Shown here: positions 2,586 through 46,340 of the stretch, piece after piece
Position numbering within the stretch: position 1 is the first letter of the stretch
Layout: each line of letters opens with the position of its first letter
From: Escherichia phage Henu8
Sequence record: NC_049853.1
DNA length: 49,890 nucleotides
Direction: 5' to 3' (one strand)
Made by a program: the position numbers and the translations under genes
Notes under the pieces: generated by a model
Told to the model about the DNA's origin: nothing
What the model saw: only the letters and a program-made list of their open reading frames with translations
Database searches by the model: none

Positions 2586-2614
2586 TTGACATGTATGAAA
2601 GGCAAGGCAATAAT
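2586..2614 (+). promoter_or_regulatory. sigma70-like promoter (TTGACA-17-AATAAT)
   Basis: TTGACA at 2586-2591, 17-nt spacer, AATAAT at 2609-2614, upstream of first plus-strand gene. Confidence 0.5.
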
Positions 2615-2650: not shown

Positions 2651-3121
2651 ATGAGCGAAGAAAATATTAGCACCATGTCGCGTAGTGAGTTCTGCGATAT
2701 GCTTCGCAGCCTTGGCGCGGCAATTGGTAGCGGCGAGCGTAACAATGTATTCATGCCAGCACTTTTCTTGTGCGCTAACGTGGAGAACGGCGACGCAATT
2801 ACAGCATCGTACATGCGCCAGGTTGTCAACCGTGTGCCAGAAGTAAAGCAAAAAGGCGTGATCAGCATTAAGCGAAAGGTGACTGATGAGGGTGATGGCT
2901 TTGTGTTTACGCTCACTGAAGCCAAAAGCAAGCCTCGCGTGCTGACTGGAGACGATATAGCGAAACTTGAAATCAAGTGGCGAGCAAAGTTTATTGCTCA
3001 ACTTCTGAAAACTCAGCCGAGAATCAGCGATCTTGAAGGCGAGCGCCTGGAGGGTGCGGCAATCGCACTTGAGCGAATGAATGAAATGCTTAACGAGATG
3101 GTAAAGATGGGGGATGAATAA
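2651..3121 (+). CDS. hypothetical early protein (156 aa)
   Basis: ORF 2591..3121 trimmed to ATG 2651 with AAGGAG SD; the 2591 ATG lies inside the promoter -35. Confidence 0.6.
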   Translation: MSEENISTMSRSEFCDMLRSLGAAIGSGERNNVFMPALFLCANVENGDAITASYMRQVVNRVPEVKQKGVISIKRKVTDEGDGFVFTLTEAKSKPRVLTGDDIAKLEIKWRAKFIAQLLKTQPRISDLEGERLEGAAIALERMNEMLNEMVKMGDE

Positions 3122-3381
3122 TGAATAAGGCATTAATTGGAGTTTTGGTTGCAATCGCTACCCTGACCGGATGCGAAAAGGCATCTGAATCAACAGTTGT
3201 CGTAGGCGTGAGGTCGGATTTTAAAGTCGGTCGCCTGTTTACTGTTGATGGATGCACTGCGTACCGATTCTATGACAACGGTCGAGCAATCTATTACACC
3301 AATTGTAATGGCGCAACGGATAGCACATACCGGAGCGGCAAAAACGTAATGCACCAACAAGTCACAACAGATGTTAAATAG
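3121..3381 (+). CDS. putative lipoprotein (86 aa)
   Basis: N-terminus MNKALIGVLVAIATLTGC = signal peptide plus lipobox (LTGC); GGGGGA SD. Confidence 0.6.
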   Translation: MNKALIGVLVAIATLTGCEKASESTVVVGVRSDFKVGRLFTVDGCTAYRFYDNGRAIYYTNCNGATDSTYRSGKNVMHQQVTTDVK

Positions 3382-3421
3382 CACTTTTTGTTAAAACGCC
3401 AGGTGCAAATCCTGGCATAAT
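3376..3421 (+). promoter_or_regulatory. conserved phage promoter motif + -10 (CATAAT)
   Basis: AAATAGCACTTTTTGTTAAAAC (stop TAG embedded), 18-nt spacer holding inverted repeat GCCAGG..CCTGGC, then CATAAT at 3416-3421. Confidence 0.55.
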
Positions 3422-3453
3422 AGCCTCATCGAAACGAGATTGAGGAAAACAAA

Positions 3454-3639
3454 ATGGCACGTCGCATCACCAAAGACCTTAAAGTCCTGAACAAAGAAAA
3501 CGTAGTTAAAATCCTGGTCATCTGGGGATACAACGAAGAAACAGCAAAGCAGAAGGTAGAGGCAGGTTATGACCTGGCTGTAAAAGCAATGCCAAACGAC
3601 GACGCCAAAGGCATTGCAAACTATGTGGCTTTCTTTTAA
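3454..3639 (+). CDS. hypothetical protein (61 aa)
   Basis: ORF track; GAGGAAA SD. Confidence 0.55.
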   Translation: MARRITKDLKVLNKENVVKILVIWGYNEETAKQKVEAGYDLAVKAMPNDDAKGIANYVAFF

Positions 3640-3654
3640 TTAGCGGGTGAATAA

Positions 3655-3840
3655 ATGAAAACGAAATTAGTCCATAAATCAGAAATCAAGATCGGCGATA
3701 CTGTGATTCACAACGGCGAGCTTAGAACTGTTGGCAAAGAGTCAATAAGCCACGATGAATTTATGGGGATCTTGTTGTTCGGTGACTCTTATCGGTTGGG
3801 CTATAAAATGGTTGAGCTTGTGGAAGAGGTCAAATTCTAA
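3655..3840 (+). CDS. hypothetical protein (61 aa)
   Basis: ORF track; stop TAA directly abuts promoter motif. Confidence 0.55.
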   Translation: MKTKLVHKSEIKIGDTVIHNGELRTVGKESISHDEFMGILLFGDSYRLGYKMVELVEEVKF

Positions 3841-3884
3841 ATAGCACTTTTTGTTAAAACGCCAATCTAAAAACCTGGCATAAT
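3841..3884 (+). promoter_or_regulatory. conserved phage promoter motif + -10 (CATAAT)
   Basis: ATAGCACTTTTTGTTAAAAC at 3841-3860, 18-nt spacer, CATAAT 3879-3884; followed by conserved leader ACATAGGGCGGC. Confidence 0.55.
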
Positions 3885-3925
3885 GCATCACATAGGGCGG
3901 CACGGGCCGCAGTAACGAGGATAAT

Positions 3926-4111
3926 ATGATGAAATGCTTCACCACAAAAACAGAATGCGAAACCTATATCAAAGCCCAATATGGGGAATGTGCCTTTCAG
4001 GTTGGCGTAATATTCGCCTATCGCGTCAAGCCAATCGAAGCGAAGGCTTTTGGCGACCTGGTTGAAGGTTCATACATGGCCAGTAACGAGTTCGACGAGG
4101 TAACGCGTTGA
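3926..4111 (+). CDS. hypothetical protein (61 aa)
   Basis: ORF track; GAGGA SD. Confidence 0.55.
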   Translation: MMKCFTTKTECETYIKAQYGECAFQVGVIFAYRVKPIEAKAFGDLVEGSYMASNEFDEVTR

Positions 4112-7980: not shown

Positions 7981-8244
7981 ATGGTTTTTAATGCACTAAA
8001 ACGAATCTTTAAACCTGAATACCGGATCGTTGCTTGCACAGAATGTAAGATTTATTACCTGCAACGCCGCCGCGTTATTAGTGGGGATTGGGAATATCTT
8101 ACGGATGATGCTTTCGGCTTTTGGGCTATGGAGTTCAATAGCTACAGCGAAGCGCGTGAATACGCTAAAAAGTTGCACAAGTTCAGACCTTACAAGCTGC
8201 GTTTGCTGGTTGTCAAAAAATGCGATGTGTGGGATCACGAATGA
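7981..8244 (+). CDS. hypothetical protein (87 aa, Cys-x2-Cys pair)
   Basis: ORF track; GAGGG SD. Confidence 0.5.
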   Translation: MVFNALKRIFKPEYRIVACTECKIYYLQRRRVISGDWEYLTDDAFGFWAMEFNSYSEAREYAKKLHKFRPYKLRLLVVKKCDVWDHE

Positions 8245-8420
8245 AAAGAGTAATTATCATTTTTATTGCCCTTATCGCTGGTTGCTACCTGGCATATAAT
8301 TATAGCGGCATTGTTGAGTCAATCGGCGGGTTGATTATCTTCATGGCTGGCGGGTATGCTGGCTATTATGATGGATTCGAAAACGGAAAGCGTTACATGC
8401 TGACCGGAAAAAAGAAGTAA
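8241..8420 (+). CDS. small membrane protein or lipoprotein (59 aa)
   Basis: ATGA overlap with upstream stop; MKRVIIIFIALIAGCY (possible lipobox IAGC) and Gly-rich hydrophobic segment. Confidence 0.45.
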   Translation: MKRVIIIFIALIAGCYLAYNYSGIVESIGGLIIFMAGGYAGYYDGFENGKRYMLTGKKK

Positions 8421-15130: not shown

Positions 15131-16243
15131 ATGAAGGCAAAACAAAGATTTGATAGCGTCCAGGTTAAGGCGCATTTTGATGATAATGGCTTTTTAGTGG
15201 ATCGCCCAATTGTGGCGCGAATTGGCTTGCAGGAGTACCGCACACCGTATGGAATCAGACGAGAGTTCCGTCCAGCGTCCGAGGTGTTCAAGGCTGATTC
15301 CCTTGCTACGTTCGCAGGCAAGCCGATCACTATCGGTCACGTCACAGTGACGCCAGATAATGCGGATCAGGTTGTTGTTGGTTCATGCGCTGGTGCTGGT
15401 GTTCCAAATGGTGTTGGCGTTGAAGTTCCGTTAAGCATTTACTCAAAGCGAGCAATTGAGAGCGCAAAAAAGAAAGACACGGCGGAAATTTCAGTTGGTT
15501 ACACATCGGTTGATATTGACAAGCCAGGCTGGGGTAATAATAAAACCGGTGATTACTTGTTTGAGGAAGATCTAAAGGAAGACTGGGAGCCTGATTCTCC
15601 TGATTGGGTTAAATTTGACGCCATTCAGACGAATATCCGTGTTAATCACATTGCACTTGTCTTTCGCGGTCGTGCTGGCATTGCCAAATTAAATCTTGAT
15701 AGTGAACAGGATTTTCCGTATAGTGACGAGGTTCTAAATGACAAAGGAGATGAGGAAATGACAGTAAAAATTAAACTTGATGGCGCGGTAGAATTTGATG
15801 TTCCAAAGGCCGTTGCTGATCATATTGAGGCGTTAAAGGCAGATGCAAAAGCTGCAACCGAAAAAGCTGATGGCCTTGAGGCCGAGCGCGACGCCCTGAA
15901 AACTAAAGTCGATGGCATTCCGGCGCAGATTGCAGAAGCTGTTAAGAAGGCAAAGACTGACGCAGAAGAACACGCCAAGCTGGTTGCAGATGCAACTGAA
16001 ATTGGCATCAAGTGTGACGGCTTGGACGCTAAAGCGATCAAGGTTGCTTACGTCAAAGAAGTCACTGGCGCTGATATTTCAGAAAAAGCCGATGCATATA
16101 TTGAAACAGCTTTTGACCTTGCGAAGCAGTCTGATAAAATGGCGGCGCAGCGTAAATCTGTTAAGGGCGATTCTTTCGAATCTGGCAAGGGTGAAAAAAC
16201 CGACTCCCTTGATCCGACTGCGCGTTTGAAAAAACTTAAATAA
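15131..16243 (+). CDS. capsid scaffolding protein (possibly protease-scaffold)
   Basis: Trimmed to ATG 15131 (AAAGGAGAG SD); C-terminal Ala/Lys/Glu-rich coiled-coil-like region typical of scaffolds. Confidence 0.5.
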   Translation: MKAKQRFDSVQVKAHFDDNGFLVDRPIVARIGLQEYRTPYGIRREFRPASEVFKADSLATFAGKPITIGHVTVTPDNADQVVVGSCAGAGVPNGVGVEVPLSIYSKRAIESAKKKDTAEISVGYTSVDIDKPGWGNNKTGDYLFEEDLKEDWEPDSPDWVKFDAIQTNIRVNHIALVFRGRAGIAKLNLDSEQDFPYSDEVLNDKGDEEMTVKIKLDGAVEFDVPKAVADHIEALKADAKAATEKADGLEAERDALKTKVDGIPAQIAEAVKKAKTDAEEHAKLVADATEIGIKCDGLDAKAIKVAYVKEVTGADISEKADAYIETAFDLAKQSDKMAAQRKSVKGDSFESGKGEKTDSLDPTARLKKLK

Positions 16244-16255
16244 GGAGAAATAAAC

Positions 16256-16768
16256 ATGGCTACAATTGGAGCAAGTTATTTTGCTGTAATGTCTCGTGCG
16301 TTACCTGGTCAGGTTTCTGACACTTCAGCTTATAATATTGATGGCGCTTGTGTTCTTGAGAATGCGGCAGGCAATCAGAATCAGTCTGTTTTTGTTGGTG
16401 TGGCGGTCCAGCATGGCGGCGTTGATGCGATGGGTAATAAACTGATCAAGCCTATGGCGGCAAGCGGCAAGGCTTACGGCGTTGCAATTCGATCTCACTT
16501 TCAGACAACTTCGGCTGAAGGTCGAATGATTTATGAATCTGGCGGCGGAATCAACGTAATGACTGAAGGGCGTGTTTGGATGTTGGCTAAAGACGCATCC
16601 GCGCCAGCGTTCGGCACTACAATCAAGCTGTCTGATGATGGTCAGGTTGATACAGGGTCTGGCACTATCGAAACAAACTGGATCGCAACTGGTGACTTTA
16701 CCGAGTTTCAAGGCTTGAAGCTGGTAGAGGTTCAGGTGCAAAAAGTTCCGGCAGTTTCAGCAGGTTAA
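16256..16768 (+). CDS. head structural protein (candidate decoration protein), paralogue 1
   Basis: 170 aa; AAGGAGA SD; shares GVAV...G.VWML...AP.FG...DG motifs with the next gene. Confidence 0.5.
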   Translation: MATIGASYFAVMSRALPGQVSDTSAYNIDGACVLENAAGNQNQSVFVGVAVQHGGVDAMGNKLIKPMAASGKAYGVAIRSHFQTTSAEGRMIYESGGGINVMTEGRVWMLAKDASAPAFGTTIKLSDDGQVDTGSGTIETNWIATGDFTEFQGLKLVEVQVQKVPAVSAG

Positions 16769-16775
16769 TAAATAT

Positions 16776-16800
16776 GGCGCTCACTGAGCGCCTTTTTTAT
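16776..16800 (+). terminator. rho-independent terminator
   Basis: GGCGCTC-ACT-GAGCGCC hairpin followed by TTTTTTAT. Confidence 0.55.
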
Positions 16801-16813
16801 ATTTGGGGTTATC

Positions 16814-17248
16814 ATGAGTGATTATTCAGTCATTGTTGGCGCTGAGTCGCCAGGGTGCATGGTCGATTCTTCAATAATGGTGATTAACGGATCTTTCGTG
16901 TGCGGAGATGAATTTATTGCGCCAGGTAAGATTGTGCGACTATCACATATAACAAATGGATACAAAATAGCAAGTGTTAATGGTGATCTCGTTATTGGCG
17001 TGGCAGTAAGACCGCCGGACTCGTGCATATATGAGGAGGGTGATCCAGTTAATGTGGTTAGTAGAGGTAGTGTGTGGTGCTTAACTTCTGAGAGCGAAGC
17101 GCCAGAATATGGAGATAAAGTATTTGTAACGCAAGATGGAGATGCGGCATACAGTGAAGGCGACTTGCTGAATGGTTGGATCTTTACTGGCGAACATGTA
17201 AAGGTTGATCGTGATTCATATATTGTCGGGGTAAGCATTAGCGCATAA
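16814..17248 (+). CDS. head structural protein, paralogue 2
   Basis: 144 aa; compare GVAVRPPD...GSVWCLTSESEAPEYGDKVFVTQDGD with GVAVQHGG...GRVWMLAKDASAPAFGTTIKLSDDGQ in 16256..16768. Confidence 0.5.
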   Translation: MSDYSVIVGAESPGCMVDSSIMVINGSFVCGDEFIAPGKIVRLSHITNGYKIASVNGDLVIGVAVRPPDSCIYEEGDPVNVVSRGSVWCLTSESEAPEYGDKVFVTQDGDAAYSEGDLLNGWIFTGEHVKVDRDSYIVGVSISA

Positions 17249-17331
17249 CACAAAATTATGTTGCACGTTTAACAAAAAATGCTATCATTGGGGCGTTACA
17301 TACTAACAGCCTTTATATATGGAGGAAGAAA

Positions 17332-18306
17332 ATGGAAAAAGAAAAATTTGATCAGCTAGATGCGGATATTGTTTCTAGCCATCTGGCTACTCGCGGCGTT
17401 AAGGGTGATGCTTCTGATATGGGTATCTGGACGGCGCAAGAGCTTCACAAGATCCGCTCAACTGCTTACGAGAAAGAGTATCCGGCTGGTTCAGCGCTTC
17501 GTGTGTTCCCTGTAACTAATGAGCTTTCTGATACTGATAAGACTTTTGAATATCAGATGTTTGACAGGGTTGGTTACGCAAAAATTATCGCTGATTACAC
17601 CGACGATCTGCCAACTGTTGACGCTTTAATGTCAAGCGAGTTTGGCAAGGTGTTCCGCCTGGGTAATGCGTTCTTGATCTCCATTGACGAAATCAAGGCT
17701 GGTCAGCGCACTGGTAAGAGCCTTTCCACTCGCAAGGCAAACGCAGCGCAAAACGCTCATGATCAGGAAGTTAACCGCCTGGTGTTTAAGGGTTCAAAGC
17801 CGCATAAGATTCTTTCGGTGTTTGAACACCCTAACCTGACAAAGATCGTGTCAACTGGATGGTTGAGCAACGATGAGAACACCAAGTTCCCCGAGACGGC
17901 TTCGGACGATCTTGAAAAGGCGATCGAAACCATCGAGAAGATCACCAATGGTCAGCACCGCGCAACCAATATCCTGATCCCGCCGTCTATGCGCAAGGTT
18001 CTTTCCGTTCGAATGGAAAACACCACTGAAAGTTATCTGGAATACTTCCAGAAACAAAACAGCGGAATCACCATTGACTCAATCGCAGAGCTTGAGGATA
18101 TTGATGGCACAGGAACTAAAGGTTGCCTGGTATATGAGAAAGACCCGATGAACATGTCGATCGAAATTCCAGAAGCATTTAACATGCTTCCGGCGCAACC
18201 AAAAGATCTGCATTTCAAAGTTCCGTGCACTTCAAAATGTACTGGCCTGACGATTTACCGTCCGTTTACGCTAGTGCTTATTACTGGCTTGAAAAAATCA
18301 GGTTAA
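17332..18306 (+). CDS. major capsid protein
   Basis: 324 aa; strong SD TGGAGGAAG; own promoter region and terminators on both sides; position and size fit an HK97-fold MCP. Confidence 0.65.
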   Translation: MEKEKFDQLDADIVSSHLATRGVKGDASDMGIWTAQELHKIRSTAYEKEYPAGSALRVFPVTNELSDTDKTFEYQMFDRVGYAKIIADYTDDLPTVDALMSSEFGKVFRLGNAFLISIDEIKAGQRTGKSLSTRKANAAQNAHDQEVNRLVFKGSKPHKILSVFEHPNLTKIVSTGWLSNDENTKFPETASDDLEKAIETIEKITNGQHRATNILIPPSMRKVLSVRMENTTESYLEYFQKQNSGITIDSIAELEDIDGTGTKGCLVYEKDPMNMSIEIPEAFNMLPAQPKDLHFKVPCTSKCTGLTIYRPFTLVLITGLKKSG

Positions 18307-18318
18307 TCGTATAACATT

Positions 18319-18350
18319 GGGGAATCCTTAACTGGATTCCCTTTTTTATT
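18319..18350 (+). terminator. rho-independent terminator after capsid gene
   Basis: GGGGAATCC-TTAACT-GGATTCCC hairpin followed by TTTTTTATT. Confidence 0.65.
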
Positions 18351-18362
18351 GGAGGTTATGAA

Positions 18363-18635
18363 ATGGCTAAAGAAAAAACTGTAACGCTAAAGGTTTCCGG
18401 CGTGTGCCTTATCATTGTTGATGGGGAGCATTATCATCCAGGCAAAGAGTTTGACGTAGAAGAATCAAAATTGAAAACAAGCGCGTTTGAATATCTAATT
18501 GCAAAAGGCGATCTGGAGGTTAAAGACAACTCAGCATTGAACGAAGAAATCAAACAGAGCGCAGCAAGCAAACGTAAAAAAGACCCACGAGAGGGCAAGA
18601 GCAAAGCCGAACTTGAAGACGGCGGCATCTATTAA
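18363..18635 (+). CDS. hypothetical structural-module protein (90 aa)
   Basis: ORF track; GGAGG SD; Lys/Glu-rich C-terminus. Confidence 0.5.
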
Positions 18636-18682
18636 TAAAGAGGGCGCTTATAGCGCCCTTTGTCATATCTGGAGGAAACAAA

Positions 18683-19099
18683 ATGGTTGATGAATTTTTC
18701 ACTGACGCAGAAATCACGCAGCAAATCGTAAAATTAGCGCCACCGATGAAGCAGATTGATCCAGATTTAATGGTGGCATGGATTGAGCTTGCAAAGGAGT
18801 TTGTTTGCAAGAAGCGGTTTAAAGAGTCATATCCTAAAGCGGTTGCCCTTTATACTTTGCACCTTATGACGCTTGACGGAGCTATGAAGCAAGAAGGGGA
18901 AAGCGTAGAGAGTTACTCGCGGCGCGTGGCGTCATTTTCCCTGACTGGTGAATTTAGCCAGACATTTGATCGCGTGTCCGGCGATTCAAGCGGAAAAGAG
19001 ATTAGACAAACTCCGTGGGGCAAAATGTATGAGACGTTAAATAGAAAAAAAGGCGGTGGATTTGGCCTTGTTACTGGATTTCGGAGGCGCTGCAAATGA
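18683..19099 (+). CDS. head-tail connector / adaptor protein
   Basis: 138 aa; GGAGGAAAC SD; position between capsid and tail genes. Confidence 0.45.
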
Positions 19100-19467
19100 A
19101 CTATAACGAGATCGCAAGAATGGCAACCGAAGGAATTAACTTCTTTAGTGATAGCAACGGTGAGTTTAAGTGCATAACGCAGCGTGGAAGCGTTGAAATC
19201 ATCGGAGGCGAAGAAGTACAAAAGCCAGAGATTAGTGTAATGATTAAAGGTTTAATTCGCTCCCCAAAAGTACGCGAGGTTGACGGCGAGACAATACGAG
19301 TAACCGATAAGCTGGGAGTTTTTAACAATAAGGTTGAAATTAAGAACGGGTATCATATTGATGTTGATGGTGAATTATATGTTGTAGTTGAAGCAAGACC
19401 AATCAGACAAACCAATGTCACAGTTGCTTATCGGCCTATTTTGAGAAGGATTTCCGTGCATGGCTAA
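19096..19467 (+). CDS. head-tail joining protein
   Basis: 123 aa; overlapping start/stop with neighbours. Confidence 0.4.
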
Positions 19468-19903
19468 AAACTACACGATAAGGGAATTTCACGGCAACAT
19501 TGATGCGTGGATAAACGCCGTTGATAATGGACTAAAAGATTGCGTGGAATTGTTCGCCGAAAAAGTACACACAGATTTGGTTAAGCGTTCTCCGGTAGAT
19601 ACTGGTCGTTACCGTGCAAACTGGCAGGTAACAGCAAACAAGCCGCCATTGTATGCGCTTAACCAGTACGATAAGCACGGCGACAAAACGATCGCGGAAG
19701 GCAAGCGCGCCATATACGCAATATTACGAGGTGGCGGAGCAGTAAGAGCCATTTATTTTTCCAACATGCTTATTTATGCTAACGCGCTTGAGTACGGTCA
19801 TTCAAAACAAGCGCCAGCGGGTGTGCTTGGGATTGTAGCTGTTAAGTTGAGATCTTATATGGCTGAAGCAATAAAAGAGTCGAGGGCTAAAAATGCACTA
19901 TGA
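19460..19903 (+). CDS. neck / tail completion protein
   Basis: 147 aa; overlaps neighbours; by position. Confidence 0.4.
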   Translation: MAKNYTIREFHGNIDAWINAVDNGLKDCVELFAEKVHTDLVKRSPVDTGRYRANWQVTANKPPLYALNQYDKHGDKTIAEGKRAIYAILRGGGAVRAIYFSNMLIYANALEYGHSKQAPAGVLGIVAVKLRSYMAEAIKESRAKNAL

Positions 19904-20291
19904 ATTAATGCTATCGGCGCGTAAGGCGCTGGCGACTGAATACGAAAGCAGATTCATGATCGCTTATGAAAACGTAGAGTTTACGCCACCTGGTGACGGT
20001 TCGCCGTGGTTGAAGTTTGACTATACCGAAGTTGACACAGAATACTTGTCATTGGATCGCAAATGCGTTTCTTATATCGGAATGATTCAGGTTGGTATTG
20101 TGTTTCCACCAGGTTACGGAACTGACAGGCCGCGTGTTCTAGCTAAAGAGATTGCGCAATTCTTTTACGATGGTAAAATGTTGGAGCACGGTTATATATA
20201 TGAGGGTGCAAGAGTTCACAAACCGCTCAAGAGTGAAAGCGGATGGCTTCTCCCTATAAGGTTTTATGTTCGAATTGAAAAAAAGGAGTAA
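19893..20291 (+). CDS. tail terminator / completion protein
   Basis: 132 aa; immediately upstream of the major tail gene. Confidence 0.4.
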   Translation: MHYELMLSARKALATEYESRFMIAYENVEFTPPGDGSPWLKFDYTEVDTEYLSLDRKCVSYIGMIQVGIVFPPGYGTDRPRVLAKEIAQFFYDGKMLEHGYIYEGARVHKPLKSESGWLLPIRFYVRIEKKE

Positions 20292-20296
20292 AAATT

Positions 20297-20959
20297 ATGC
20301 ATTTACCAAATGGATCGCAAATTTTCGTTGAGAGCAATCGCGGAAGCGAAATCCAAGCAACAGCAGTGTCAAACGCTAAAGATCCTGTATTCACCGTTGC
20401 ATCTGGCGGCACTGCGTACAAGAAAGGTGATTATGTTATCATCACTGCGTCTTCTTGGGGTAAGCTAATTGATCGCGTTATGCGTGTAAAGAATAACGGT
20501 GAAGAAACGAGCGTGACTCTTGAAGGTGTAGATACTACTGATCAGAACGTTTTCCCGTCTGGCGGTACTGCATCTTTTGCCAAAATTGATGCATGGACTG
20601 AGATCCCTTGCGTTCAGGACTTGTCGCAGGACGGCGGCGAACAGCAATACTACACTTATCAGTGTTTGGCAGACGATCAGGAACAGCAGTTACCTACCTA
20701 TAAGAGCGCCGTTTCTCTTACCTACACTTTTGCGCACGAATACGATAACGCGATCTATCCGTTACTTCGTGCAGCAGATGAATCCGGCGCTGTGACGGCG
20801 CTTCGTATGTATGTACCAAAAGCAAAAGAGATGCGTTGCTGGGCTGGTGTACTTTCGTTTAACGAAATCCCGCAGACCACAGTTAACGAAATGGAAACTG
20901 TTTCCCTGTCTGTATCCCTGAAAGGTCGATTCACCTTCCTACCTTCTCAAGTAGCATAA
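20297..20959 (+). CDS. major tail protein
   Basis: 220 aa; AAGGAG SD; followed by a strong terminator and then the chaperone and tape-measure genes. Confidence 0.6.
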   Translation: MHLPNGSQIFVESNRGSEIQATAVSNAKDPVFTVASGGTAYKKGDYVIITASSWGKLIDRVMRVKNNGEETSVTLEGVDTTDQNVFPSGGTASFAKIDAWTEIPCVQDLSQDGGEQQYYTYQCLADDQEQQLPTYKSAVSLTYTFAHEYDNAIYPLLRAADESGAVTALRMYVPKAKEMRCWAGVLSFNEIPQTTVNEMETVSLSVSLKGRFTFLPSQVA

Positions 20960-20990: not shown

Positions 20991-21058
20991 ACTGTACAAT
21001 CAAGCTACACGATTCATAATCAATTCTTTTAACAAAAAGTGCTATCAAGGGGAAAGAA

Positions 21059-26963: not shown

Positions 26964-29900
26964 ATGGCTGAAAATATGATAACGGGAAGTAAGGGTGGAT
27001 CATCAAAACCTTATGTTCCGAAAGAGATGGAAGATAACCTGATCTCAATCAACAAAATCAAAATCCTTCTTGCCGTTTCCGATGGCGAGTGCGATCCAGA
27101 TTTTACACTTCGCGATCTGTATCTTGATGATGTTCCGGTAATTGCAGACGACGGAACTGTTAACTACCAGGGTGTGAAAGCTGAATTTCGACCTGGAACG
27201 CAGACGCAAGATTACATCCAGGGGTTTACTGACACATCAAGCGAAGTGACGCTGGCGCGTGACATTACGACGACAAATCCTTATGTAATTTCTGTAACCA
27301 ACAAAACATTATCGGCTATCAGAATAAAAATGCTAATGCCAACAGGCATTAAGCAAGAGGATAACGGCGATCTTGTGGGTGTTAAGGTCACTTATGCTGT
27401 TGATATGGCTGTTGACGGAGACTCTTACAAAGAAGTATTGCGAGACACCATCGAAGGTAAAACACGTTCAGGTTACGACAGAAGCCGAAGGATTGACCTT
27501 CCGGCATTTAATGATCGCGTATTGCTTAGGGTTAGAAGGGTTACGGCAGACAGCGCATCATCTCGCGTTACTGATTTGATTAAGCTACAAAGTTACGCTG
27601 AGGTTATTGATGCAAAATTCCGTTATCCTCTGACTGGTCTTGTTTACGTTGAATTTGACAGCGAATTGTTCCCAAACCAGATCCCTAACATTTCAATAAA
27701 GAAGAAATGGAAGCTGATTAATGTACCAAGCAACTATGACCCTGTATCTAGAGAGTATAGAGGTTCATGGGATGGAACGTTCAAGAAAGCGTGGTCGAAT
27801 AATCCGGCGTGGGTGCTTTATGACATTATCACAAACCAGCGATATGGATTAGATCAGCGAGAACTTGGTGTACAGGTTGATAAATGGAGTCTTTACGAGG
27901 CGGCGCAATACTGCGATCAGAAAGTTCCTGACGGGAAAGGCGGTACAGAGCCGCGTTATCTATGCGACGTTGTGATTCAAAGCCAGATTGAGGCTTATCA
28001 GCTTATTCGTGATATTTGCTCAATCTTCAGAGGCATGAGCTTTTGGAATGGAGAGAGCTTGTCAATCGTCATTGATAAGCCGCGCGATCCGTCGTACATC
28101 TTCACAAATGACAATGTTGTTGATGGTGATTTTCAGTACACAACAGCAAGTGAAAAGAGCATGTACACGCAGTGCAACGTGACGTTCGATGACGAACAAA
28201 ACATGTATCAGCAGGACGTAGAGGGCGTATTCGACACAGAGGCCGCATTGCGATTTGGATACAATCCTACAAGCATAACCGCGATCGGATGCACACGCAG
28301 GAGTGAGGCTAATCGGCGCGGTCGATGGATACTAAAAACCAACTTGCGCAGCACTACGGTAAACTTTGCTACTGGACTGGAAGGCATGATCCCATCAATA
28401 GGTGATGTGATTGCTATTGCTGACAATTTTCACAGCAGCAACCTTAAATTAAACCTATCAGGGCGCGTGATGGAAGTTTCCGGCTTGCAGGTGTTCGTTC
28501 CATTTAAGATTGACGCGCGACCAGGTGATTTCATTATCATCAACAAGCCGGACGGAAAGCCAGTTAAGCGCACAATCTCAAAAGTAAGCGGCGACGGAAA
28601 AACCATTGAACTAAACATTGGGTTTGGGTTTGAAGTTAAACCGGATACAGTTTTTGCAATCGACCGCACTGATATTGCATTGCAGCAATACGTTGTAACG
28701 AGTATCGGCAAAGGTGATGATGATGATGAATTTACATACTCCATCACGGCTGTTGAATATGACCAGAACAAATACGACGAGATTGATTACGGAGTAAACA
28801 TTGACGACAGGCCAACTTCAGTTGTCCAGCCTGACACAATGGCAGCACCGGAAAACGTGCAAATATCCTCATACTCGCGAATTGTCCAGGGTGCAAGCGT
28901 TGAAACAATGGTTGTGTCGTGGGATAAAGTACCTTACGCATCGCTGTATGAAATGCAATGGCGAAAAGGTGATGGCAACTGGCTGAATACACCACAGACC
29001 GCAAACAAAGAAATTGAGGTTGAAGGTATTTATTCAGGAAACTACCAGGTAAGGGTTAGATCTGTTTCCGCTTCAGGTTCTACTTCTCCGTGGTCCAGAA
29101 TTGTGACAGCATCACTGACTGGTAAGGTAGGAGAGCCAGGCGCGCCAGTTAACTTAACAGCATCCGACAATGAAGTGTTTGGCATTCGTGTTAAGTGGGG
29201 GATGCCAGAGGGGAGCGGGGACACGGCATACATTGAGCTTCATCAGTCGCCGGATGGAACGGCTGAAAACTCAAGCCTGCTAACGCTGATCCCGTATCCA
29301 CAATATGAATACTGGCACGGTACGCTTCCGGCTGGTCATGTTGTCTGGTATAGAATCCGCAGCGTTGACAGAATAGGCAACGTTTCCGGCTGGACTGATT
29401 TTGTTAGAGGCATGGCTTCAGATGATGTTGAGGCTGTTTTAGGAGATATTCTTGATAAGATTTTTGATACTGAAGCAGGTCAGGATCTTAAAGAGAACGC
29501 CATTGACAGTGCAAACAAGATAAAGGACCAGGCTCAAGCAATCATCCAGAATGCTCTTGCTAATGATGCTGATATTAAGTGGACGCGAGTACAAAATGGA
29601 AAGAGAAAGGCTGAATATGGTCACGCTCTTGAACTTATAGCCACAGAGACTGAGGCACGAGTTACGCAGATTGAAGAGTTGAGGGCGTCAATCGACGAGG
29701 ATATTGTTTCAAGCATAAAGACAGTGCAGGAGGCTATAGCCACAGAATCTGAAACGCGATCAACTCAAATAAATGCTTTGGATTCAAAATTCACAACTGA
29801 AATTGACGGTGTAAAACGCGATACAGCCGCAAGCATTAATCAGGTGAATCAAACCATTGCCAATGAGTCAGAATCGCGCGCGCAGGCCGTTAACGCGCTT

Positions 29901-30542
29901 GATGCGAAGTTCACAAAGGAGATCGAAGATTTAAACGGAGTCATTAAGACTGAGGTTGAGGCTAACATCTCTGAAGTGAAACAGGCTATCGCTAACGAGA
30001 CAGAAGCAAGGGTGCAGGCTGACCAGGCGTTAACAGCTAAATTTGGAGACGTTGAATCTGCATTATCTCAAAAACTTGATTCGTGGGCTGGCGTGTCGTC
30101 TGTTGGTGCTAAATACTCAATGAAATTGGGGTTAACATACAACGGTCAACAGTACAGCGCGGGGATGGTGATGCAGCTTTCGCAGAGTTCATCCGGCCTT
30201 ATTTCGCAAATTTTGTTTGATGCGAACAGGTTCGCCATCATGACAAGTTCGACTGGCGGGGTGTATACGCTGCCTTTCGTGGTGGAAAATAACCAGGTAT
30301 TCATTAACAGCCTGTTAGTTAAAAACGGTTCAATTACAAATGCTATGATCGGTAATTATATTCAGTCGAATAACTTTGTTGCCAATCAGCAGGGTTGGAG
30401 GCTGGATAAAAACGGCAGATTTGAGAACTACGGTTCTACATCTGGAGAAGGGGCCATGAAGTTGACAAACGAAACGATAAGTGTACGAGACGCAAACGGG
30501 CGCTTGCGTGTTCAGATTGGTAGGCTTACTGGTACTTGGTAA
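26964..30542 (+). CDS. tail tip / host specificity protein (lambda J-like)
   Basis: 1192 aa, last and largest tail gene; fibronectin-III-like middle region; C-terminal ~35-aa coiled-coil repeats (...TE.R.TQI..L...I... IA.ESE.R...). Confidence 0.8.
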   Translation: MAENMITGSKGGSSKPYVPKEMEDNLISINKIKILLAVSDGECDPDFTLRDLYLDDVPVIADDGTVNYQGVKAEFRPGTQTQDYIQGFTDTSSEVTLARDITTTNPYVISVTNKTLSAIRIKMLMPTGIKQEDNGDLVGVKVTYAVDMAVDGDSYKEVLRDTIEGKTRSGYDRSRRIDLPAFNDRVLLRVRRVTADSASSRVTDLIKLQSYAEVIDAKFRYPLTGLVYVEFDSELFPNQIPNISIKKKWKLINVPSNYDPVSREYRGSWDGTFKKAWSNNPAWVLYDIITNQRYGLDQRELGVQVDKWSLYEAAQYCDQKVPDGKGGTEPRYLCDVVIQSQIEAYQLIRDICSIFRGMSFWNGESLSIVIDKPRDPSYIFTNDNVVDGDFQYTTASEKSMYTQCNVTFDDEQNMYQQDVEGVFDTEAALRFGYNPTSITAIGCTRRSEANRRGRWILKTNLRSTTVNFATGLEGMIPSIGDVIAIADNFHSSNLKLNLSGRVMEVSGLQVFVPFKIDARPGDFIIINKPDGKPVKRTISKVSGDGKTIELNIGFGFEVKPDTVFAIDRTDIALQQYVVTSIGKGDDDDEFTYSITAVEYDQNKYDEIDYGVNIDDRPTSVVQPDTMAAPENVQISSYSRIVQGASVETMVVSWDKVPYASLYEMQWRKGDGNWLNTPQTANKEIEVEGIYSGNYQVRVRSVSASGSTSPWSRIVTASLTGKVGEPGAPVNLTASDNEVFGIRVKWGMPEGSGDTAYIELHQSPDGTAENSSLLTLIPYPQYEYWHGTLPAGHVVWYRIRSVDRIGNVSGWTDFVRGMASDDVEAVLGDILDKIFDTEAGQDLKENAIDSANKIKDQAQAIIQNALANDADIKWTRVQNGKRKAEYGHALELIATETEARVTQIEELRASIDEDIVSSIKTVQEAIATESETRSTQINALDSKFTTEIDGVKRDTAASINQVNQTIANESESRAQAVNALDAKFTKEIEDLNGVIKTEVEANISEVKQAIANETEARVQADQALTAKFGDVESALSQKLDSWAGVSSVGAKYSMKLGLTYNGQQYSAGMVMQLSQSSSGLISQILFDANRFAIMTSSTGGVYTLPFVVENNQVFINSLLVKNGSITNAMIGNYIQSNNFVANQQGWRLDKNGRFENYGSTSGEGAMKLTNETISVRDANGRLRVQIGRLTGTW

Positions 30543-30585
30543 AATCAAAGCGGGGCATTTGCCCCGCATTTATGGAGGTTTAATA

Positions 30586-30891
30586 ATGGCTGAATATGGT
30601 GTTTCAACGTGGGATGCTAACGGGAAGTATAACAACTACGGAATCAAGCCAGTTTCCGTTGTTGGTGTCATTAGCCTTGCCGCTGGTCAGACAAGCGGAT
30701 CGTGGAGCTTTAGCATTCCAAGTGGTTTTAAGGTTGGGTATGTTGTTTCACTTGATGAAGGTGCCAGGGGAGTTGGAAGGGAAATAGTAGCATCTGGAAA
30801 TACAATAAGAATTAATCCTACATCGTCAATTGGTGCAAATAGGTATTCTTCTTCAAAGTGCGAGTTAGTTGTTTTTCTTGAGAGGGTTTAA
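30586..30891 (+). CDS. hypothetical tail-associated protein, MAEYG paralogue 1 (101 aa)
   Basis: Trimmed to ATG 30586 (GGAGG SD); N-terminus MAEYGVSTWDANGK. Confidence 0.5.
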   Translation: MAEYGVSTWDANGKYNNYGIKPVSVVGVISLAAGQTSGSWSFSIPSGFKVGYVVSLDEGARGVGREIVASGNTIRINPTSSIGANRYSSSKCELVVFLERV

Positions 30892-30892
30892 A

Positions 30893-31534
30893 ATGGCTGA
30901 GTATGGAGCAATGTTATCTTTATCAAATGGGAATCCATTTGTCACACCAAAATCAACGCCATTTTGCTTATATGGCAAGTACACTTATTCATCTTCAGGT
31001 ACTTCTGCCTATCATAGTGCAAGCGCAAATATACCAGTAAACCAATCTTATCCATGCATGGCATTTATAAAAACAACAAACACACAGCAGCCAACTGCAT
31101 TAATAGCTTACAGGAATGGTGGCAACATTTATGTAAACGGAGGCAATCCATACGGGCAATCATTTACAATGACTGTTTATATATTTGCCATATTCCCTCA
31201 AACTCTACCCAAATATGGTATGGCTATATGGGATGCAAGCGGAAAGTTGGTTTTAACTAATGAAAGCAGGGTGCTAACAGATCTTGTTACAATTGGTACT
31301 CCTGGTTCTTCAGGTGGAACGAATATAGATCAAACGTTATCTGGTTCTTATGCCGTTTGCCCTTCAAGGCTTGGTGCGGTTATAGGTATGGGCGCTTCTG
31401 ACATATATACATCATGCAGGTATAATGGTTCAAGCACAAGGATCGGTGCAGCAAGGACAACGCCAGGAACAGGTTCTATAACAAATAACGGAAATTCAAT
31501 AATTGCAATAAAGACTGATATTTACGACCAATGA
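30893..31534 (+). CDS. hypothetical tail-associated protein, MAEYG paralogue 2 (213 aa)
   Basis: Trimmed to ATG 30893; N-terminus MAEYGAML and internal KYGMAIWDASGK repeat matching paralogue 1; Ser/Gly/Thr/Asn-rich. Confidence 0.5.
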   Translation: MAEYGAMLSLSNGNPFVTPKSTPFCLYGKYTYSSSGTSAYHSASANIPVNQSYPCMAFIKTTNTQQPTALIAYRNGGNIYVNGGNPYGQSFTMTVYIFAIFPQTLPKYGMAIWDASGKLVLTNESRVLTDLVTIGTPGSSGGTNIDQTLSGSYAVCPSRLGAVIGMGASDIYTSCRYNGSSTRIGAARTTPGTGSITNNGNSIIAIKTDIYDQ

Positions 31535-31566
31535 AAAAAGGGGCTTTCGCCCCTTTGTTTTTATTT
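31534..31566. terminator. bidirectional rho-independent terminator between convergent genes
   Basis: A-run, GGGGC-TTTC-GCCCC hairpin, T-run. Confidence 0.65.
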
Positions 31567-31792
31567 ACAGACTGCAATCAGCGTTTTTAAAGTTATCAAT
31601 ACTTACCCACTGAAAATTAAACGGATAGCCAGCCTTAACAAGAGTGCGTTCGCCAACTCGCTTTACTCCAAAAATAGCAACTGAATACTGCATACCGCTA
31701 TTTTCATAAATAGCCGTGCATTCACGCTTAGGCATATTTGCACATCCAGTCAGGGCAATGGCTGCAATCAAAACGGCGATTAACTTTTTCAT
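31565..31792 (-). CDS. cor: Cor-like superinfection-exclusion lipoprotein
   Basis: 75 aa; MKKLIAVLIAAIALTGC signal peptide plus lipobox; GAAGGAG SD; convergent with tail genes and driven by its own promoter. Confidence 0.55.
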   Translation of the reverse strand: MKKLIAVLIAAIALTGCANMPKRECTAIYENSGMQYSVAIFGVKRVGERTLVKAGYPFNFQWVSIDNFKNADCSL

Positions 31793-31823
31793 CTTGGTAT
31801 CTCCTTCGTTGTTGTTGGTTGCA

Positions 31824-31867
31824 ACTATACACGATCTTGCGATTGGCGTTTAGCAAAAAGTGCTATT
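31824..31867 (-). promoter_or_regulatory. conserved phage promoter motif (variant) + -10 (TATAGT) for the cor-like gene
   Basis: Minus-strand AATAGCACTTTTTGCTAAAC, 18-nt spacer, TATAGT. Confidence 0.5.
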
Positions 31868-45247: not shown

Positions 45248-45463
45248 ATGAAAGATTTTTTAAACGCTGCAACTTCCGGCACTGGCGGCGCGTCAATCAC
45301 TGGCGCGGTAACTGGTCAAACAACCATTGCAATAGCCAGCTTCGTTTTGATGGCTGCATTTGGTATGTGGGGCGCTTATCTTCGCTGGCGTGATAGTAAG
45401 GCGCTACGTGACGCGCTTGAATGCGGTGATATTAAGAAAGCTATTGAGATCAGAGGTAAATAA
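45248..45463 (+). CDS. holin
   Basis: 71 aa; AGGAG SD; hydrophobic core with charged C-terminus; directly upstream of the endolysin. Confidence 0.65.
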
Positions 45464-45951
45464 TGAGTATAAAACAAAGAGTGACCGCTGCGGCTTTTGG
45501 CGTTGCTCTTGCCCTTACTTCTCCGCTACTGGAGGAAATAGAAGGAGTAAAACATAAGCCTTACAAAGATATTGCTGGGATATGGACGGTTTGCGCCGGA
45601 ATAACTGGACCTGACGTAATACCAGGCAAAACGTACACACAAAGAGAGTGCGATGCGCTACTGGCAAAGCATATCAAGATCGCAAAGGATGAAGTTGATA
45701 AACGTGTGAAGGTTGACATTCCTGATACAATGCGCGCGGCGATGTATTCATTCACATACAATGCTGGCACTGGTGCTTTTAGAAATTCAACTATGCTTAA
45801 GCTGATTAATAACGGTCGTTATATGGAAGCGTGCAATCAGTTATGGCGATGGACAAAATACACCAATCCAAAAACAGGAAAGAAAGAAACGTCTAAAGGA
45901 CTGCGCAACCGCCGCGCGGTGGAATTTAAATATTGCATTAAGGATCTGTAA
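45463..45951 (+). CDS. endolysin (lysozyme-like muramidase), possible SAR N-terminus
   Basis: 162 aa; E-x8-D-x5-T catalytic triad spacing ([19 protein letters not shown]); N-terminal Gly/Ala-rich weakly hydrophobic segment [17 protein letters not shown]. Confidence 0.8.
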
Positions 45952-45953
45952 TC

Positions 45954-46340
45954 ATGAGAAAGTTATCAGCAATCGCGATCGCTGTTATTTTGTCTGGATG
46001 TTCAAGCGTTACGCCACTGACCGGATTGATAGGAAGCAAGCCTGAGATAACAGCACAGGCAGGAGCAGAGAACGTAAAGCAGACCGTTGGCGTTACCGCA
46101 AAGCAGGACACCAGTACAAAACAGGAAACTACAATAAAGGAATCTGCGGTTGATAAGGTGGACACGTCCAGCAAGAAGGATTTCACTACATCAACCATTC
46201 AGGCTAACACCATCAAGGCTGATAAAATCCAGGTCGTGCAAGGTAATAACGGCAGATGGTACGACCCCATAATCATATGCGTGGTTGTGCTCATTGTGCT
46301 GATTTGGCTTTACTGGAGGGAAAAGAAAAAGGAGGCTTAA
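45954..46340 (+). CDS. unimolecular spanin (lipoprotein with C-terminal TMD)
   Basis: 128 aa; lipobox ILSGC at N-terminus; C-terminal TMD PIIICVVVLIVLIWLYW plus basic tail; last gene of the lysis cassette. Confidence 0.7.
   Translation: MRKLSAIAIAVILSGCSSVTPLTGLIGSKPEITAQAGAENVKQTVGVTAKQDTSTKQETTIKESAVDKVDTSSKKDFTTSTIQANTIKADKIQVVQGNNGRWYDPIIICVVVLIVLIWLYWREKKKEA

Follow-up and report, generated by a model that had tools for sequence, protein, structure and literature searches.

The genome of Escherichia phage Henu8 (NC_049853.1; 49,890 bp, G+C 44.17%), which we analyzed at its full length as a single window, carries two small lipoprotein genes, at 31565..31792 on the minus strand and at 3121..3381 on the plus strand. 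A sequence-only reading of the window had proposed that the first encodes a receptor-blocking superinfection-exclusion lipoprotein of the Cor/Llp type, placed directly after the tail tip module and transcribed from its own promoter, and that the second, unrelated to it and second in an early block, might target a receptor or the envelope as well. Both open reading frames (ORFs) are present at the positions given there, each with an LTGC lipobox (75 residues on the minus strand and 86 on the plus strand). Both are already in the literature, because both carry an annotation in the Henu8 genome paper, which places the phage in the genus Hanrivervirus (Tempevirinae, Drexlerviridae): ORF45 (31,565–31,792, minus, 75 residues) is named there "Cor superinfection exclusion protein" and ORF6 (3,121–3,381, plus, 86 residues) "DUF4884 domain-containing protein". 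The closest phage records (JLBYU09, JLBYU41, damhaus, aaroes, grams, and others), which are 94–97% identical to Henu8 in DNA, likewise label their counterpart of 31565..31792 as a superinfection exclusion protein. The gene at 31565..31792 is an ordinary, previously annotated copy of cor, and there is nothing new in this main feature. The positions of all features discussed below are collected in Table 1.

The lipoprotein character of the two products was assessed with a rule-based lipobox scan that covered all possible starts in six frames across the whole genome. Only five ORFs were returned, three of which are cor, the gene at 3121..3381, and the gene for a unimolecular spanin. The Cor precursor opens with MKK, a hydrophobic stretch, and the lipobox (MKKLIAVLIAAIALTGC, then cleavage, then ANMPKRE...), and it lacks a Lol-avoidance aspartate because the residues at +2 and +3 are Ala-Asn. 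This signal peptide is classed as a lipoprotein signal by rule only, and the Pfam LPAM_1 model gave Cor 18.5 bits, slightly below the cut-off of 20. The ratio of nonsynonymous to synonymous substitution rates (dN/dS) was 0.09–0.45 against relatives for the two small lipoprotein genes, indicating purifying selection on both.

The assignment to Cor turned out stronger than had been claimed. The NCBIfam equivalog NF047972, "phage exclusion lipoprotein Cor", scored 70.5 bits over residues 1–73 of 75, above its cut-off of 31, and PHROG 1119 matched with E 1.9e-28. By tblastn, Henu8 Cor was 56% identical to T1 Cor (AAP49969, ORF30) over 75/75 residues and 34–36% identical to the Cor proteins of phi80, HK022, and N15; the Cor proteins of other Hanriverviruses (damhaus, JLBYU09, JakobBernoulli) also have 75 residues and are 93–97% identical to it. 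T1 Cor shares the length of 75 residues, the lipobox, the Cys pair, the GYPF motif, and the convergent position before exoVIII. Aligning the Henu8 protein with T1, phi80, and N15 Cor showed C17, C25, C73, and G55-Y56-P57-F58 to be invariant, and the two downstream cysteines correspond to residues 9 and 57 of mature Cor. Members of the family are present in E. coli prophages as well.

The surroundings of the gene give the same picture. That cor would follow directly after the tail tip module is right insofar as J and cor belong to the same host-recognition cassette, but two small genes (30586–30891 and 30893–31534) lie between them. The gp22-like protein encoded by the first is 60% identical to T1 ORF32 and 69% identical to phi80 gp22, and the gp23-like protein encoded by the second shares 56% identity with T1 ORF31 and 61% with phi80 gp23. 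The neighbors of Henu8 cor are of the gp22/gp23 type (PHROG 557 and 425) and do not include a receptor-binding protein of the pb5 type. The gene order in Henu8 is J, the 101-residue gene, the 213-residue gene, cor on the opposite strand, and exoVIII; order and orientation are identical in T1 (J, a 101-residue gene, a 229-residue gene, convergent cor, exoVIII), while phi80 and N15 have the same four genes (J, gp22, gp23, and cor) but all co-directional. The gp22/gp23-like proteins of Henu8 are nearer to those of phi80 than to those of T1; its Cor is nearer to that of T1. A bidirectional intrinsic terminator separates the convergent tail genes from cor; its RNA folds reach –15.4 kcal/mol (z-score –3.9) and –14.0 kcal/mol (z-score –3.0).

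Table 1. Features of the Henu8 window, with positions counted from the first letter of the 49,890-nt sequence.
Feature	Position	Strand	Remarks
cor, 75-residue precursor	31565..31792	-	Lipobox LTGC, Cys17; conserved Cys25 and Cys73; GYPF motif
Shine-Dalgarno sequence of cor, AAGGAG	31801..31806	-	Strong; 8 nt before ATG; conserved in relatives
Promoter-like element of cor	31824..31863	-	Phage motif GCACTTTTTGCTAAA, 19-nt spacer, TATAGT
Bidirectional intrinsic terminator	31537..31556		8-bp GC-rich stem, T-runs on both strands
J-like tail tip protein, 1192 residues; first gene of host-recognition cassette	26964..30542	+	68% identical to T1 J; tail protein or J-like in relatives
gp22-like protein, 101 residues; FhuA-type receptor locus	30586..30891	+	PHROG 557, E 1.6e-29
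gp23-like protein, 213 residues; FhuA-type receptor locus, candidate receptor-binding component	30893..31534	+	PHROG 425, E 7.7e-69
DUF4884 lipoprotein, 86-residue precursor	3121..3381	+	Lipobox LTGC, Cys18; conserved Cys45 and Cys62; motif RLFTVDGCTAYRF...YYTNC
First gene of the same operon, 156 residues from ATG 2651; function unassigned	2651..3121	+	PHROG 4841, E 1.2e-26; ribosome-binding site aaaggag 2637-2643
Consensus sigma-70 promoter, TTGACA-17-AATAAT	2586..2614	+	11/12 positions; best intergenic match in the genome
Copies of the repeated motif	624, 1130, 1979, 17268, 21028, 31849, 38885, 48507, 49183	-	
Copies of the repeated motif	3381, 3844, 4381, 8754, 39376, 41894, 42935	+	
Holin	45248-45463		
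Endolysin	45463-45951		
T1 gp11-type unimolecular spanin	45954-46340	+	Lipobox LSGC, C-terminal transmembrane helix; PHROG 1804, E 3e-48

The second lipoprotein begins MNKALIGVLVAIATLTGC, then cleavage, then EKASE..., with Glu at +2 and without an inner-membrane retention signal; most likely it would be anchored in the outer membrane and face the periplasm. The start codon shares bases with the TAA stop of the gene before it (TAATG), an arrangement suggestive of translational coupling between the two genes. As had been claimed, it is unrelated to Cor: in BLASTP and profile-profile comparisons only the signal peptides of the two proteins align, and we rejected homology between them because the similarity ends there. 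PHROG 6360, a family of unassigned function, matched with E 4e-11. The Henu8 protein shares the lipobox and the core motif of PF16225 (DUF4884) and PHROG 6360, but its own Pfam score of 24.1–24.8 bits (E ~2e-5) is below the cut-off of 30. PF16225 did match 95 of the 97 relatives that we collected and was carried by 120/120 relatives among the matches listed, and in records of related phages the protein likewise bears the DUF4884 label. Among 1.8 billion representative proteins, a profile search retrieved 1410 relatives, and the family has an invariant lipobox Cys, two more Cys, and the core motif LF.VDGC.VYRF.D...YFT.C.G. All contexts that we inspected were those of virulent phages: other Drexlerviridae, Serratia myophages, and Pantoea and Pseudomonas phages, together with a 351-kb jumbo-phage-like contig and contigs bearing T4-like genes for replication and recombination. 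The DUF4884 gene had no match in plasmids in a protein-level search, nor in a DNA-level search of 5,426 complete E. coli genomes. Apparent DUF4884 fusion proteins were considered and gave no functional clue; they look like merged or mis-started ORFs because the lipoprotein signal is internal.

The structure of the second lipoprotein could be predicted with confidence once the alignment was sufficiently diverse. With 24 close homologues, AlphaFold2 gave a weak model (predicted local distance difference test score, pLDDT, 64) for which Foldseek found nothing in the PDB. With 97 diverse homologues, the mature domain was modeled as a six-strand antiparallel beta sheet at a confident pLDDT of 83.6. 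Searching BFVD with the second lipoprotein model returned only members of the DUF4884 family, and its profiles gave only chance matches against PDB sequences and no match in NCBIfam; we found no solved structural relative of the predicted sheet. A literature search turned up DUF4884 in two papers, without a function or functional data.

To compare how the two lipoproteins are distributed across phages with different receptors, we determined identities to the Henu8 proteins by local tblastn; for Rtp the comparison covers the first 4 kb of the genome. According to the BASEL supplement, measured receptors are FhuA for JakobBernoulli, BtuB for KarlJaspers and FritzSarasin, and LptD for JeanPiccard. 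JakobBernoulli, a Hanrivervirus, has J at 89%, Cor at 93%, the gp22/23-like proteins at 70% and 59%, and the DUF4884 protein at 94%. KarlJaspers, also a Hanrivervirus, has J at 98% and the DUF4884 protein at 95%, while it has only a Cor-like protein at 37.5% and no gp22/23-like proteins; on the minus strand, another cassette of three genes takes the place of the FhuA-type genes. The closest relative, JLBYU09, has J at 99%, Cor at 97%, and the gp22/23-like proteins at 97% and 100%, and the DUF4884 gene is absent. The DUF4884 copy of FritzSarasin is 89.5% identical and that of JeanPiccard 56%, as is rtp3, the homologue in Rtp (predicted to use LptD), which directly follows a distant homologue of the Henu8 upstream ORF near the left genome end. 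These comparisons therefore indicate that Cor travels with the receptor module and that the DUF4884 lipoprotein does not.

The same comparison does not support the second lipoprotein as a blocker of the receptor that the phage itself uses, which the sequence-only reading had suggested it might be, because it is nearly identical (94–95%) in FhuA and BtuB sisters, 56% identical in Rtp, and absent from JLBYU09. JLBYU09 lacks the gene (region ~3283–3970) yet keeps the upstream gene (74% identical), so the second lipoprotein gene is a dispensable insertion or deletion of the early region. Our reading is that the protein is real, accessory, and dispensable and that its target would be distinct from the receptor that Henu8 itself uses; the data speak neither for nor against a broader envelope-targeting role. 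The receptor module as a whole is sharply mosaic when Henu8 26964–31792 is set against KarlJaspers 16041–20814 and JakobBernoulli 16040–20752 (coordinates of the compared records), and the mosaic identities therefore point to recombination breakpoints downstream of J as well as between cor and the receptor genes.

The orientation of cor requires a promoter of its own, as the sequence-only reading had supposed, but what lies upstream is not a canonical sigma-70 promoter; it is a copy of a motif with 16 copies in the phage genome, followed by TATAGT. The element (Table 1) is kept in damhaus and JLBYU09, and we infer that it would act as the cor promoter. T1 has the canonical TTGCAA-17-TACAAT at the equivalent place upstream of cor, whereas in Henu8 and the rest of its genus the phage motif stands there at a non-canonical spacing; the TTGTTA of the motif is ~22 nt from the –10 hexamer, which is too far for a normal sigma-70 promoter. 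The 15-nt motif, GCACTTTTTGYTAAA preceded by (aATA), has 16 copies in the genome against 0.6 expected, the copy at cor being a variant. Most copies are followed 19–20 nt on by a –10-like hexamer (CATAAT, TATAGT, or TATTAT) and then by a ribosome-binding site and an ATG, and a GC-rich palindrome often spans the interval between the motif and the hexamer. Copies occur at equivalent positions in JLBYU09, JakobBernoulli, and KarlJaspers; in the last of these, one lies ahead of the BtuB cassette on the minus strand. An 11-kb stretch of T1 that we examined lacked the motif, and a literature search did not find its sequence. On this pattern, the 16 copies look like a phage-specific promoter class. 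A regulator of the phage is encoded at ~38.8–39.3 kb.

The operon that contains the second lipoprotein gene is preceded by a promoter of a different type. A near-consensus sigma-70 promoter, kept in KarlJaspers, JakobBernoulli, and JLBYU09, would drive the two genes of this operon. The gene is indeed the second of its block, as had been stated, but the description of the block as early follows only from this conserved promoter. The two lipoprotein genes therefore differ in promoter type and may or may not be expressed at different times, as the sequence-only reading had proposed. The published start of ORF5, the upstream gene, is ATG 2591, which falls within the consensus promoter and is ACG in JLBYU09; the true start is likely ATG 2651 behind the ribosome-binding site aaaggag, and BASEL annotators use it.

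Taking these results together, we consider it highly probable that the cor gene of Henu8, a virulent T1-like phage, is the one at 31565..31792, with a product that would block FhuA, and that the second lipoprotein is an unrelated accessory protein with a target other than the receptor. Cor proteins inactivate FhuA, and for those of the phi80, N15, HK022, and mEp167 type of temperate phage, which exclude FhuA-dependent phages by lysogenic conversion, this inactivation has been shown by experiment. The temperate-phage proteins, including that of mEp167, belong to the same family (34–36% identity), and the phi80 partners gp22 and gp23 are 61–69% identical to those of Henu8; their cor genes, however, are co-directional with J-gp22-gp23 and expressed from the prophage, while Henu8 is virulent and its cor convergent. 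Previous work predicts that Cor and T5 Llp share a fold and shows that the Llp disulfide C11–C58 is needed for FhuA binding. As is predicted for Cor, Llp (PDB 8A60 chain B, with FhuA) is a small outer-membrane lipoprotein with a disulfide between its N- and C-terminal parts, and C11–C58 is mirrored by residues 9 and 57 of mature Cor; where Cor goes with gp22/23-like proteins, Llp has an unrelated receptor-binding protein, pb5, as its partner. The KanT1 paper reports that the cor cassette tracks FhuA use across BASEL phages and small siphophages and presents an AlphaFold3 model in which the Cor of KanT1, a T1-like phage, docks on the periplasmic side of FhuA. The Rtp45 protein of Rtp (PDB 9RPS, against LptDE) follows the same logic, being a small disulfide-bonded lipoprotein encoded behind J at the receptor locus and matched to the receptor, but it differs from Henu8 Cor in receptor and in fold, and the sole sequence match between the two is the signal peptide (E 0.4).

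From these parallels, we propose that a Cys25–Cys73 disulfide would tie together the N- and C-terminal ends of a small beta-rich Cor domain, as in T5 Llp, and that the mature 59-residue protein would bind FhuA on its periplasmic face, FhuA being the receptor that the adjacent gp22/gp23-like genes predict. FhuA bound in this way would be unusable for phage adsorption, with the expected result that the infected cell is spared superinfection and progeny are not wasted on FhuA-bearing debris. The bidirectional terminator would insulate cor from the convergent late tail genes, and the promoter of cor would probably be its copy of the promoter-like motif that the phage repeats across its genome. The DUF4884 lipoprotein, made from a host-type consensus promoter, would act on something other than the phage's own receptor.

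Several observations weigh against this interpretation. The link to Llp is marginal in sequence: phmmer aligned Cor with T5 Llp (8a60_B) over the full length at E 0.23, which is not significant alone, and a profile built from six Cor sequences did not retrieve Llp at E ≤ 10. Because no canonical sigma-70 promoter was found upstream of cor at normal or relaxed thresholds, the expression of the gene and its timing can only be inferred. The divergence between Henu8 and JakobBernoulli is uneven (Cor 93%, the gp22/23-like proteins 70% and 59%), and because Cor and its neighbors diverge so differently, the specificity of Cor is not safely read from the adjacent genes. Finally, a literature search found no structure of a Cor–FhuA complex, a 2026 preprint describes the molecular mechanism of Cor proteins as not yet elucidated, and the Henu8 paper gives neither a receptor nor an exclusion test for this phage. 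A J Virol 2023 paper on FhuA phages contains nothing on Cor.

The receptor is the point at which one alternative would enter, since the Cor/Llp family includes BtuB-linked members and Henu8 Cor could in principle block a receptor other than FhuA. The BtuB phage KarlJaspers has its distant Cor-like gene, and Cor-like proteins of phages that use BtuB are mentioned in the KanT1 paper as well. However, the identity of Henu8 Cor falls from 93% with the protein of the FhuA phage JakobBernoulli and 56% with that of T1 to only 37.5% with the BtuB-type protein, and the accompanying gp22/23-like genes are those of the FhuA phages T1, phi80, and N15, so we regard a different receptor as very improbable. 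Still less credible is the proposal that one or both small lipoproteins are lysis proteins, that is, outer-membrane spanin components. The weak PHROG matches to Rz-like spanins in its favor involve the signal peptide only (E 0.1–0.3), neither protein has a C-terminal membrane helix, and neither gene overlaps or adjoins an Rz-like gene. We rejected the spanin reading for both because a separate and complete lysis cassette of holin, endolysin, and u-spanin is present at 45248–46340.

A more serious competitor holds that both lipoproteins are exclusion factors, with the DUF4884 protein blocking a second outer-membrane protein, against heterologous phages, or a step after adsorption. In its favor, the DUF4884 protein is a lipoprotein without an inner-membrane retention signal and under purifying selection; its gene stands behind a strong host-type promoter and would probably be expressed at once after infection; it recurs across many virulent phages that are not related to one another, in each case with early or DNA-metabolism genes around it; and the known exclusion lipoproteins Cor, Llp, and Rtp45 are likewise small, disulfide-bonded, and beta-rich. 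Set against this, the DUF4884 gene does not covary with the receptor cassette (94–95% identity in FhuA and BtuB phages, 56% in an LptD phage), adjoins no receptor-binding gene, and is missing from JLBYU09, and its product resembles Cor, Llp, and Rtp45 neither in sequence nor in fold. Its core motif is kept across phages of Escherichia, Serratia, Pantoea, and Pseudomonas, a pattern more in keeping with a conserved target than with a surface receptor that varies, and the lack of any published function for the family counts on the same side. We judge this two-blocker arrangement unlikely. A reading that we offer tentatively is that the DUF4884 lipoproteins are a widespread, uncharacterized class of early lipoproteins of virulent phages that would have a conserved component of the envelope as their periplasmic target, whichever receptor the phage itself uses, and would work through a beta-sheet fold that lacks a solved relative; they might then serve as a general block to the entry of other phages or protect the envelope of the infected cell.

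Among T1-like and lambdoid FhuA phages, Cor and its cassette are textbook knowledge, and the value of finding them here is predictive. Judging by this cassette, Henu8, a proposed therapeutic phage, almost certainly uses FhuA, and we would therefore expect resistance through loss of fhuA and cross-exclusion with phages of the T1, T5, and phi80 types. The lead of interest is DUF4884, a large family with a strongly conserved core and a confidently predicted fold without a known match. The Hanriverviruses provide natural controls for its study, comprising sisters with and without the DUF4884 gene and with different receptors.

We made several further observations in the window and its relatives. 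Two of the motif copies, at 17268–17282 and 21028–21042 on the minus strand, are antisense within the plus-strand structural block and have poorer –10-like hexamers; antisense transcription and a regulator-binding site are both possibilities. After each of the minus-strand copies at 1130 and 1979 come a ribosome-binding site and an ATG (~1068 and ~1911, both minus) where the Henu8 table lists no gene, and JLBYU09 annotates small minus-strand ORFs near these two sites, so that Henu8 may have unannotated small genes there. The u-spanin of the lysis cassette is a third lipoprotein, absent from the sequence-only reading, and a fourth lipobox-like ORF (8241–8420, plus, 59 residues, IAGC) is more like a small membrane protein. 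About 18 GenBank records within MG065636–MG065687, titled "Campylobacter phage" with Campylobacter jejuni as host, are ~95% identical to Henu8 over the cor region, and 7 of these unannotated records also have the DUF4884 gene. By their sequence, they look like mislabeled or contaminating T1-like coliphages.

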